Below, piece after piece: positions 3,955 through 6,782 of a DNA stretch of 64,000 bases. A program made the position numbers and the translations under genes. Under the pieces are notes generated by a model that was not told where the DNA came from, searched no databases, and saw nothing but the letters and a program-made list of their open reading frames with translations. Position 1 is the stretch's first letter. Every line of letters starts with the position of its first letter. The stretch lies in IMG/VR virus record IMGVR_UViG_3300026493_000016, positions 81,873 to 145,872 of that record; one strand, given 5' to 3'. The stretch comes from a virus.

Positions 3955-5019
3955 TTACAGTCCCGCCTCGTCAATCAATGCATCGATGTCGACAGCATCT
4001 AAATCGTTAAGGTCGATTTCTGTATCATTAAGAGGTGTCTCTAAGTCAACGCCTTCTAGGTCATCTACTTTAACTTCTTCTGTTTTTACAGGAGCTGCTT
4101 TGACAGGTTGAGTTGCTGTAGTTGCCGCTTGAGTTTGATAAGGGTTTGTAGCTTGTGCTGTGTTTGCTGGTGTTACTGGTTGGTTAGTAGTAGCAGGTGC
4201 TGATTGACCACCTTCTTTGGGAACATTTGAATCAGGGTCGTTACTGTTTTTCCCTTCCAATACATCCGCAAATCGTTGCACCCAGTTTAGTCCATTCTCT
4301 AATAACTCAGTTGCACGACCATGGAACGATAAATCTTCCAATTCATTCTGCCATCCTTCACCTAATGGAGGTAGCTGGTTTTGGTAAACTGTAACAGGTG
4401 CTTCCATTTGACCTTGTTTAGGCTTCTGGATTAAGACTGGTGAACCCGCATTAGGGTCTAAGAATGACAATTGACGACCGCCAGCTAAACGCTTATCAGT
4501 TAATGATGAATTGATAGTTTTCATAGCTGAGTGAGGTACATCGAATAATCGAACAACTAACTTACCCTTCTCGTCTCGCTCTTGTTTTTGAGTTCCATCT
4601 GGATTCTCAATGATTTTAACACAGTTAACTGTGAAGAACTGCTTAGGTTTTTGTTGTCCGCCGAATGGAGTAGGAATCATCTCCTTAGCTGTCCATTCGT
4701 CAATCTTAGCATCCAAGAATAAGCTACCGTCTTTCTTACCTGTTAATGTAAAAGTATTAGATAGTTTCTTTTGGTTCTTAGTTGTTGCTTGTAAGAAGAT
4801 TTTACGGCAGTGTTCTGCAAATTTACCATATAAATCAGCCGATGGTAAGATTTGAATGAATACTTCCGGTTCGTCCTTGCTTAAGAATAGACGTTTATGT
4901 TTAGCTGTAGGATAAACAACCTTAGGGTTGTTACCACTGTTACCAGAACCTCCACGTCCACCTCCAGAACCTTCTAATTCCTTACGTTGTTGTTCAATAA
5001 TATCTGCAAAGTTTACCAT
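3955..5019 (-). CDS. Single-stranded DNA-binding protein (gp32-like)
   Basis: Position upstream of recA; IQILPS and VRLFDV motifs; A/T/P/Q linker and acidic tail DIDALIDEAGL. Confidence 0.8.
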   Translation of the reverse strand: MVNFADIIEQQRKELEGSGGGRGGSGNSGNNPKVVYPTAKHKRLFLSKDEPEVFIQILPSADLYGKFAEHCRKIFLQATTKNQKKLSNTFTLTGKKDGSLFLDAKIDEWTAKEMIPTPFGGQQKPKQFFTVNCVKIIENPDGTQKQERDEKGKLVVRLFDVPHSAMKTINSSLTDKRLAGGRQLSFLDPNAGSPVLIQKPKQGQMEAPVTVYQNQLPPLGEGWQNELEDLSFHGRATELLENGLNWVQRFADVLEGKNSNDPDSNVPKEGGQSAPATTNQPVTPANTAQATNPYQTQAATTATQPVKAAPVKTEEVKVDDLEGVDLETPLNDTEIDLNDLDAVDIDALIDEAGL

Positions 5020-5172
5020 TATTCATTTCTCCCTTGTTTTATAATTTTTGGTTTTTTACGTCCTCTTTGGGACAGCTGTTTAAAAGGGTTTAGCTACCTT
5101 TTTTCATCTCTCTGTACCTCTACCCTCCTTTAGTAGTTTGTAAGAATCCCTTCTTACTATTTCTATATACCA
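5020..5172 (-). promoter_or_regulatory. ssb promoter (TGGTATATAG) and structured 5' leader (hairpin, uORF MKKGS, pseudoknot, A-rich run)
   Basis: Complementary segments read directly from sequence; see findings. Confidence 0.55.
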
Positions 5173-5192
5173 TCAATCTATCAAAAAGGTAA

Positions 5193-5363
5193 CTACATTG
5201 TGGTATTTTTTAATTTACTTTCTAAATACTCTAATGCCCACTCGGAACCATCATCAGATAAAGCATAGTCTACTACTTTATCGATAATACATTCGATAGC
5301 TTCATCTCGTGTATACTCATCTGCGTTGTACATATTAATCGTTCTTTGGACTTCGTATAACAT
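5193..5363 (-). CDS. Hypothetical 56-aa protein (MLYEVQRTINMYNADEY...), not in ORF track
   Basis: Open frame with GGAGGGGCAGGTG upstream; fills an otherwise empty gap. Confidence 0.6.
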   Translation of the reverse strand: MLYEVQRTINMYNADEYTRDEAIECIIDKVVDYALSDDGSEWALEYLESKLKNTTM

Positions 5364-5479
5364 GGTAATTCACCTGCCCCTCCGCAGTTGTCGCACACTG
5401 CATCATAACCTGTTCCATATCCAGAAAAGCCACTGCCACCACAGACAGTGCACTCCTCTGTAATTATTTTCTTATCCAT
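5273..5479 (-). CDS. DnaJ-type zinc-finger microprotein
   Basis: Two CxxCxGxG motifs (CTVCGGSG, CDNCGGAG). Confidence 0.65.
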   Translation of the reverse strand: MDKKIITEECTVCGGSGFSGYGTGYDAVCDNCGGAGELPCYTKSKERLICTTQMSIHEMKLSNVLSIK

Positions 5480-5880
5480 TATTTATCCCCACTAGTACGC
5501 AGCTTAATATCGGGGATAATCTCCTCTGGACGGAATACAACTTTGTAATGATATGCATCTTCGTATTTAGCATCTGTTTGTTCGATGAAGTAACTTACAT
5601 TGTCGCTAAGACCTAAGTAATGCTTCTTATACGTGTTGTCTTTTGTTTTACATGTTACAGTTACCTTCTTAGCGTCTGATGCATCCATAGCACATAACCC
5701 TTCAATAGATAACAGATACTTGTCTGTAATACCGTTGAAGAATACTACTCGGCGTTGCACCTCAAAATTATCTGCTGATTCTGATAGGTTCTTAGAAACA
5801 GTGTCTGCCTCATTGGAACATGCTGCCAATCCTGTTAACGCCATTAATGATATTAAACCTGCAATAATCTTCTTTTTCAT
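5479..5880 (-). CDS. Lipoprotein
   Basis: MKKK, hydrophobic core and lipobox LAAC; strong SD. Confidence 0.85.
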   Translation of the reverse strand: MKKKIIAGLISLMALTGLAACSNEADTVSKNLSESADNFEVQRRVVFFNGITDKYLLSIEGLCAMDASDAKKVTVTCKTKDNTYKKHYLGLSDNVSYFIEQTDAKYEDAYHYKVVFRPEEIIPDIKLRTSGDK

Positions 5881-6293: not shown

Positions 6294-6782
6294 CTAATTG
6301 CCACTAAACACACTCCCCGCTTTATGTCCGTATTGTGAATCGTTAGCCAACTGCTTACCGATAGATTGAAGCATGTTGCTACGTTGTTCAAATGCCTTTA
6401 CAATACGAGATGTACGACCTAAAATCTGTTCAAATTCTATTACACGTTTACGCTGCTGGTCATATTCAGTTCGAGTCTTAATATAAGCATCGACGGCATC
6501 CTTTGTAGGTTTCTCGCTTTTGGCTTTGATTTCCGCTCTCGCTGCGGCGTCCAGCGTGGCTACTATCTGCTCTAGTTTTAGTTCTTGGCGTTCTAGTAGG
6601 TAACGTACTTTCTCGTGCAGAGCGGACCAATAGACGTATTTAACAGGTTGCTCTAACATCTCCTCCTGTAAGTTTACAGGGTTAATTTTTAACTCTTCTC
6701 GCAAATCGAACGATTCTACTAACCCGTTTGTATCTTTAATAGTAATCTCATCGAAATCGAGGAAATCTACTGGAATGTTCAC
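6294..6782 (-). CDS. UvsY-like recombination mediator
   Basis: Helical 162-aa protein with a KPTKDAVDAYI...AFEQRSNMLQS pattern; herellevirus position between polA and ssb. Confidence 0.65.
   Translation of the reverse strand: MNIPVDFLDFDEITIKDTNGLVESFDLREELKINPVNLQEEMLEQPVKYVYWSALHEKVRYLLERQELKLEQIVATLDAAARAEIKAKSEKPTKDAVDAYIKTRTEYDQQRKRVIEFEQILGRTSRIVKAFEQRSNMLQSIGKQLANDSQYGHKAGSVFSGN

Follow-up and report, generated by a model that had tools for sequence, protein, structure and literature searches.

How does a phage outside the T4 group set the level of its single-strand DNA-binding protein (SSB)? The question matters for phage biology because SSB is required in stoichiometric amounts for replication and recombination, and to our knowledge control of the SSB level has been worked out in T4-like phages only. 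We analysed a 64,000-nucleotide stretch of viral DNA (the window). It belongs to a Bacillus cereus-group phage of Wphvirus type (Herelleviridae, Bastillevirinae), and in it a 173-nt non-coding gap precedes the ssb gene. An earlier note on this DNA had proposed that the transcript of the gap may be an operator like that of T4 gene 32, with a 5' hairpin, a short upstream open reading frame (uORF), an H-type pseudoknot and an A-rich run leading to the Shine-Dalgarno (SD) sequence of ssb. All the motifs that it listed lie in the window where it placed them (Table 1).

We conclude that the leader is a conserved functional element. What the element does is a matter of graded probability, and the reading that we favour, with somewhat less than even confidence, is that it combines a promoter with a stabiliser-type leader–a hairpin at the 5' terminus and an orphan SD-like sequence, similar to the STAB-SD of Bacillus, inside a stable hairpin–placed in front of an open, A-rich initiation region.

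The ssb locus

The ssb region has matches of 80-95% identity in 54 Bacillus phage records, and the leader is single-copy within the 146-kb genome. The gene next after ssb is UvsX/RecA-like, and a UvsY-like gene lies upstream of ssb (6294-6782), with several small genes between it and ssb. One of these neighbours (5479-5880, minus strand) encodes a protein that matches Phage_VG64 in Pfam and 'recombination directionality factor' in PHROG; it has a lipoprotein-type signal, MKKKIIAGLISLMALTGLAAC, at its N-terminus, an odd fit with the latter annotation. A 68-aa ORF (5273-5479, minus strand) carries two CxxCxGxG motifs of the DnaJ/anti-TRAP-like kind and overlaps the next small ORF (5193-5363, minus strand) by about 90 nt. 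Because relatives annotate a 46-aa version of the 68-aa ORF, some of them as anti-TRAP/TRAP, the ORF in the window appears to read beyond the usual stop. TRAP is not known from the B. cereus group, and TRAP-like GAG/UAG triplets, sought in the leader by eye, are too few to make it a candidate TRAP target.

Table 1. Features of the ssb leader in the window, with numbers of variable alignment columns and Fisher tests against four-fold degenerate sites.
Feature	Position	Strand	Variable columns	Fisher p	Remarks
ssb	3955-5019	(-)			predicted gp32-fold single-strand DNA-binding protein, 354 aa, acidic C-terminal tail; phrog_1867, E 4e-138
ssb initiation region	5017-5035	(-)	1/16	4e-5	SD AAGGGAG 5035-5029, AUG 5019-5017
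A-rich unpaired tract	5036-5058	(-)	7/24	0.007	65% A
Small hairpin UGUCC-CAAAGA-GGACG, 5 bp	5059-5074	(-)			stem invariant, 2/6 loop positions vary; -5.2 kcal/mol, z -2.1, 9/200 shuffles; GUCC/GGAC of the earlier note 5073-5060
Central block	5099-5060		6/40	2.8e-6	
Stem 1 of proposed pseudoknot, AAAAGG/CCUUUU	5102-5097/5087-5082				
Loop pairing of proposed pseudoknot, UAGCU/AGCUG	5096-5092/5077-5073				
Long irregular hairpin, 48 nt	5082-5129	(-)			5' arm AGGAGGGU..AG.UAC 5129-5114; apical loop 5113-5098; 3' arm GUA.CU..ACCCUUUU 5097-5082; -13.4 kcal/mol, z -3.4, 0/200 shuffles
5-codon uORF, AUG AAA AAA GGU AGC UAA	5090-5107	(-)			in apical loop and 3' arm of long hairpin; not conserved
uORF start region			9/15	1.0	
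GAGGU of the earlier note	5120-5116				8 nt before AUG 5107
Orphan SD-like AAAGGAGGG (STAB-SD-like)	5123-5131	(-)			invariant in 20/20 leaders
Upstream block	5138-5113		6/26	8.8e-4	
5'-terminal hairpin GUAAGAA-GGGA-UUCUUAC	5140-5157	(-)	8/18	0.18	-6.9 kcal/mol, z -5.7, 0/200 shuffles as good
Extended -10 TGgTATATA	5164-5172	(-)			GGTATATAGAAA invariant
Promoter motif of the earlier note, TGGTATATAG	5172-5163				
-35 region TTACCT 5192-5187, in invariant block CACAATGTAGTTACC	5187-5201	(-)			overlaps stop codon of upstream ORF; A/T-rich UP-like run further upstream
Whole gap	5192-5020		49/173	6e-6	

Selection on the leader

We aligned the leaders of 20 Wphvirus genomes, which comprise 17 distinct leaders, and collected other ssb upstream regions from eight further Bastillevirinae genera, Listeria phage A511, and Enterococcus phages EF24C and ZJGS4. 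As a proxy for neutral change we used the four-fold degenerate sites in the first 170 ssb codons (36 of 57 variable, pi 0.20), and compared each part of the gap to them by Fisher test. Judged by this alignment, parts of the gap are under purifying selection and the constraint is patchy (Table 1): the 5' hairpin and the uORF start region change about as fast as the neutral proxy. Within the conserved part of the leader, one-base indels that shift the frame are tolerated. Because the start of the uORF is neutral, such indels are tolerated, and the blocks are conserved even where the frames are broken, we place the constraint on RNA or DNA rather than on an encoded peptide. The invariance of AAACAGCUG and GGACGUAA exceeds what simple hairpins need.

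In ssb itself, the third position varies in 14 of the first 34 codons (4918-5019, minus strand), compared to 20-30 of 34 in the next codons. This difference suggests an extra constraint on the 5' coding sequence, which could come from the initiation region or from the Gly-rich N-terminus.

The Wphvirus leader can be aligned within the genus only, so tests for covariation are limited, and their power cannot be raised because we found no SSB homologues between 59% and 83% identity. Protein-guided and pattern scans of IMG/VR for more distant copies of the leader gave only known Wphvirus genomes and one 14-kb contig, and a pattern scan of metagenomes gave no match. An SD-centred pattern had 49 matches in genome contigs; these are in unrelated taxa and we attribute them to chance and to a poorly chosen pattern.

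Promoter and 5'-terminal hairpin

The earlier note had proposed a promoter whose predicted start coincides with the 5' hairpin, and comparison with relatives supports the promoter. The -35 block is invariant in the 20 Wphvirus leaders, including the BPS13 clade, where it is non-coding, and it is separated from the extended -10 element by a 17-nt spacer. The window's promoter aligns with the canonical TTGACA-17-TGgTATTAT in phage B4 and TTGACT-17-TGgTATACT in phage Bastille, and the W.Ph clade has a better -35 (TTGCCT) without the TG. It is therefore plausible that the gap carries ssb's own sigma-A-type promoter, from which we infer a transcript start at approximately 5158/5157. By eye, we saw no match to the SPO1-type middle or late promoter consensus, and a literature search for Bastillevirinae transcript maps gave nothing usable.

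With this start, the ssb transcript would begin at the foot of a 7-bp hairpin and have a leader of about 140 nt. The hairpin's pairing is kept by compensatory changes: two pairs (9-20 and 10-19 in the alignment) have changes on both sides in the BPS13 clade. There are G-U changes in two other clades, and a central G/A mismatch in one clade (OmnioDeoPrimus, DirtyBetty, Eyuki). By pair counting, these are the only compensatory changes within the leader. The 5'-terminal stem-loops that act as stabilisers in the aprE, ermC and hbs leaders have the same arrangement, in which a strong ribosome-binding element comes after a hairpin that sits on the predicted +1 or no more than a base or two from it. 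They differ from the Wphvirus leader in that its 5' end is a prediction, and in that one of its clades has a mismatched hairpin.

A different conserved block is found in five other Bastillevirinae genera (represented by BSP12, BCP78, PK16, phiNIT1 and BSP38), whose SSBs are approximately 35-45% identical to the window's. They share a nearly identical 30-nt block, (T)TGACATATGATATAATGTATGTTAGACTGT, some 40-90 nt upstream of ssb. It holds an inverted repeat (ACATA..TATGT) and two overlapping -10-like boxes, and in sequence it looks like a conserved promoter or operator.

An orphan Shine-Dalgarno-like sequence in a predicted hairpin

Downstream of the 5' hairpin, the leader is predicted to form a 48-nt hairpin in which the invariant SD-like AAAGGAGG is paired with CCCUUUU, and then a 5-bp hairpin. 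The long hairpin is both the minimum free energy (MFE) fold and the RNAalifold consensus; AGGAGGGU pairs with ACCCUUUU, and UAC with GUA higher up. Its pair probability is about 0.9 in 14 of the 17 leaders, and it is register-shifted in the W.Ph clade, where a deletion and a substitution move the register and the same two blocks are still paired. The arms are nearly invariant. The apical loop, which is the neutral, length-variable start segment of the uORF, varies in both sequence and length. For the smaller GUCC hairpin, the predicted fold energy alone is weak evidence. All three helices of the leader agree across the MFE fold of the window, the RNAalifold consensus and the partition functions of the individual sequences.

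Pair counting found no compensatory change in the long hairpin. More generally there is no covariation in its lower part, in the GUCC hairpin, or in the two stems of the proposed pseudoknot, because their pairs are invariant throughout the alignment. With no covariation in the long and GUCC hairpins, the RNA fold of the central block, though plausible, is not proven against a role at the DNA level or in protein binding.

The sequence AAAGGAGGG is complementary to the Bacillus anti-SD at the 3' end of 16S rRNA, and it stands at -112 to -104 from the ssb AUG. It is an orphan, with no conserved start codon behind it: the start is absent in the BPS13 clade and in Hakuna, has moved in the W.Ph clade, and elsewhere opens frames of 5, 8 or 27 codons. 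Among the 34 sites of AAGGAGG in the 146-kb genome, 29 precede genes, four are within ORFs, and the one intergenic orphan is the site in the leader. A copy of AAGGAGGG that also has no start codon after it occurs at about 50664 on the minus strand (genome position 132536), where it provides the 5' arm of GAAGGAGGGCUAAUAGCUCCCUUC, a terminator-like hairpin with a U-run after it.

A polypurine stabiliser at the 5' end of early RNA of phage SP82 was reportedly described by Hue and colleagues in 1995. Stabilisation that depends on an SD has been reported for SP82 RNA, aprE, gsiB and ermC, and SD-bound ribosomes stabilise Bacillus mRNAs, such as SP82 phage RNA and cry3A, without translation. The cry3A STAB-SD of B. 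thuringiensis, near -125, binds the 30S subunit without being a translation start, and blocks RNase J1 (Agaisse & Lereclus 1996). The Wphvirus leader similarly has a perfect SD-like sequence about 110 nt upstream of the true start, within the 5' UTR and serving no conserved ORF, with a 5' structure nearby; its host group is that of cry3A (B. cereus/thuringiensis) and its phage family is that of SP82. It differs from these two systems in that the predicted fold ties its SD-like element to CCCUUUU in a hairpin of -13 kcal/mol, in that some relatives start a short ORF 8-15 nt behind the element, and in that its stabilising role is putative.

In the reading that we favour, the 5' stem-loop and the SD-like polypurine would block 5'-to-3' decay by RNase J1, through binding of the 30S subunit, through stable structure, or both. 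The block would cover transcripts from ssb's own promoter as well as read-through from upstream genes, while the A-rich tract would hold the initiation region open. As an outcome, the message for a protein that is required in stoichiometric amounts would last long and be heavily translated.

Four points count against a stabiliser. The SD-like element is paired in the predicted fold (P about 0.9), which would compete with 30S binding; two G-U pairs in this helix are conserved, and in the modelled folds these, together with an alternative small stem CUACU/GGUAG (5135-5119, minus strand), would leave room for 30S binding. The alternative stem would show AAAGGAG in a 7-nt loop, and a C-to-U change in seven relatives preserves its pairing as G-U. 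The second point is the lack of covariation in the long and GUCC hairpins, and the third is the invariance of AAACAGCUG and GGACGUAA noted above. The last is that five other Bastillevirinae genera and three phages of other Herelleviridae lineages have short ssb leaders with no structured element; for the same reason, we regard the structured module as an addition made in Wphvirus. A stabiliser-type leader accounts for the invariant orphan SD better than repression of ssb by its own product does.

The A-rich tract and the gp32 fold

The earlier note described an unpaired A-rich run up to the ssb SD, and this description agrees with the predicted fold. Adenine makes up 65% of the 26 nt that precede the ssb SD, which ranks second among the 176 putative genes in the genome (median 38%). 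The segment 5058-5015 is predicted to be unstructured (-3.3 kcal/mol, z -0.2) and contains UAAAA twice, and in the ensemble the ssb SD is largely free of pairing. A tract with at least 58% A precedes ssb in 10 of the 13 Herelleviridae lineages compared, from three subfamilies, even though these sequences cannot be aligned with one another.

At the sequence level, SSB has no match in Pfam or the PDB. We therefore compared structures, using an alignment-based AlphaFold model with a core pLDDT of about 85-90 (a single-sequence model reached 36). In Foldseek searches the core of the model matches RB69 gp32 (2a1k; E 7e-6) and T4 gp32 (1gpc; E 6e-5), both with a probability of 1.0 and with TM scores (target) of 0.57-0.60. 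By this model, SSB is a fold-level homologue of T4/RB69 gp32. The zinc ligands of gp32 are not conserved: SSB has two Cys, and there is no Cys or His among its invariant columns.

These results bear on the possibility that SSB represses its own translation, as gp32 does in T4. Free SSB would nucleate at the block 5099-5059 or at the GUCC hairpin, spread cooperatively over the A-rich tract and cover the ssb SD, and single-stranded DNA would relieve the repression by titrating SSB. We consider this possible, with the balance of probability against it. In the T4 gene 32 operator (PMC535899), a structured element adjoins an unstructured region of more than 40 nt that has UUAAA/UAAA elements and includes the ribosome-binding site. 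The Wphvirus leader matches this layout: behind its structured part come some 40 nt of A-rich RNA, predicted to be unpaired, with UAAA(A) elements and the ribosome-binding site. The candidate regulator has the gp32 fold and an acidic C-terminal tail, it is encoded by the gene it would regulate, and that gene sits in a UvsY-like/SSB/UvsX-like module. The rank of the A-rich tract in the genome, its recurrence in ssb leaders that cannot otherwise be aligned, and the fact that it varies less than four-fold sites do (Table 1) also speak for this reading. The tract fits the unstructured half of the T4 operator, but it equally fits selection for strong translation, which alone would also favour A-rich, unpaired initiation regions. 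Against self-repression, most Herelleviridae ssb leaders lack a structured element, the zinc ligands are missing, and no pseudoknot is supported. Two further differences from T4 are the Gram-positive host and the lack of sequence similarity.

A T4-type nucleation pseudoknot has a candidate in the sequence, formed by stem 1 and the pairing of its loop to a downstream segment, but it fares poorly in comparison with the long hairpin. Both pairings have a probability of about 0 in the nested ensemble, because CCCUUUU pairs with AAGGAGGG instead, and forcing UAGCU to pair with AGCUG costs 3-10 kcal/mol. Going by general pseudoknot geometry, the structure is also sterically doubtful, with 0 nt between the 5' strands (L1 of zero length) and an L3 of 4 nt to cross 6 bp. 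Drawn as a plain hairpin, AGCU:AGCU costs 3-10 kcal/mol in Wphvirus; Bastille has GGAGCUAAUAGCUC before its A-rich tract. What stands of the analogy with gene 32 is thus the gp32-fold SSB, the conserved structured leader and the unpaired A-rich run; the uORF and the pseudoknot are not supported. Among the pairings that the earlier note proposed, covariation is present in the 5' hairpin and absent from stem 1, the pseudoknot stem and the GUCC hairpin.

Self-repression does not conflict with a stabilising 5' part; T4 is an example, its gene 32 mRNA being unusually stable. The two could be combined if Herelleviridae SSBs repress themselves through the A-rich tract and the Wphvirus module, consisting of the orphan SD:CCCUUUU and GUCC hairpins, both stabilises the message and nucleates SSB. 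We think this compound scheme unlikely.

The pyrimidine strand and the uORF

Two further explanations centre on elements of the long hairpin. CCCUUUU is complementary both to the upstream AAGGAGGG and to the ssb SD, AAGGGAG, and both of these are invariant, so the leader could be an SD/anti-SD switch. In the ON state CCCUUUU would pair upstream and leave the ssb SD free; in the OFF state it would pair with the ssb SD itself. The state would be set by occupancy of the upstream SD, by a ribosome or some other factor, or by translation of the mini-ORF. Blocking the upstream SD in silico gave refolds that differ between clades: in W.Ph, and to some extent in BPS13, CCCUUUU paired with the ssb SD, whereas in the window, OmnioDeoPrimus and Belinda it found a local partner once freed and left the ssb SD open. 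Also against a switch, its supposed driver, the mini-ORF, is not conserved, and covariation is absent. We regard a switch as quite improbable.

The same low probability attaches to the idea that a small gene once lay between promoter and ssb, that the leader is no more than its decaying remnant, and that its function is limited to carrying the promoter and the ssb ribosome-binding site. The uORF bears on this idea; the earlier note had proposed that it would let ribosomes melt the pseudoknot. Six different states are found at its site among the 20 Wphvirus leaders, and neither start, frame nor peptide is conserved. The 5-codon form is present in the window phage alone. Most relatives have an 8-codon version (AUG GAA AAG GUA GCU AAA CCC UUU UAA); Belinda, Nigalana and AaronPhadgers have 27 codons, and the Belinda form is annotated as a gene (phrog_23969). 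In Hakuna the AUG is replaced by ACG; a different AUG, opening 11 codons, is used in W.Ph, Crookii and a metagenomic contig; and the BPS13 clade has no ORF at this site. A regulatory uORF or leader peptide is therefore not supported.

At the same position, behind a homologous promoter and SD, Bastille has a 62-codon ORF that starts M-T-K-G-N and is annotated (phrog_11989), and B4 has a 7-codon ORF that starts M-K-G-N; the window's uORF reads M-K-K-G-S. The orphan SD and the AUG-AAA-(AAA)-GGU that follows it align with the SDs and starts of these two ORFs, and the length of the ORF drifts among 0, 5, 8, 11 and 27 codons. From these alignments, the apical loop's short ORFs are probably what remains of a small gene that Bastille retains as an open frame. 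The 62-codon ORF (Bastille locus 329-517) is found only in 14 Bastillevirus records, spans the space between promoter and ssb, and overlaps the ssb start. The B4 ORF begins with GTG (B4 locus ~465-490) and lies inside a hairpin that is followed by a U-run. A remnant without further function does not account for nucleotide blocks that are far more conserved than four-fold sites while the frames are broken; an origin as a remnant and a present function of the leader are compatible.

The last candidate, a preQ1-I type riboswitch (AAAGG-UAGCUAAAC-CCUUU and then an A-rich tail), was suggested by a loop and 5-bp stem that loosely resemble those aptamers, but it is effectively refuted: an Rfam search of the leader (801 nt and 96 nt, E<=10) gave no real match to any family, PreQ1 (RF00522) included, L1 is missing, the tail falls short of the required length, and the stem varies in its 5' strand (ACGAGG in the W.Ph clade).

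Implications

The uORF and the pseudoknot, being unsupported, drop out of further work. Three results deserve to be taken further: the SSB of Herelleviridae has a predicted gp32 fold; its gene almost always stands behind an unusually A-rich, open leader; and one genus, Wphvirus, has added to this a conserved module around an orphan SD that is like the STAB-SD of its host. If the module acts as we tentatively propose, the leader could be put to use in B. thuringiensis or B. cereus as a compact 5' UTR that boosts expression.

The leader bears on two ideas, namely that a decoy ribosome site stabilises phage mRNA, and that SSB represses its own synthesis outside the T4 group. Should self-repression prove true in Herelleviridae, autoregulation of SSB would be an ancient trait of the gp32 family and not a speciality of T4-like phages.
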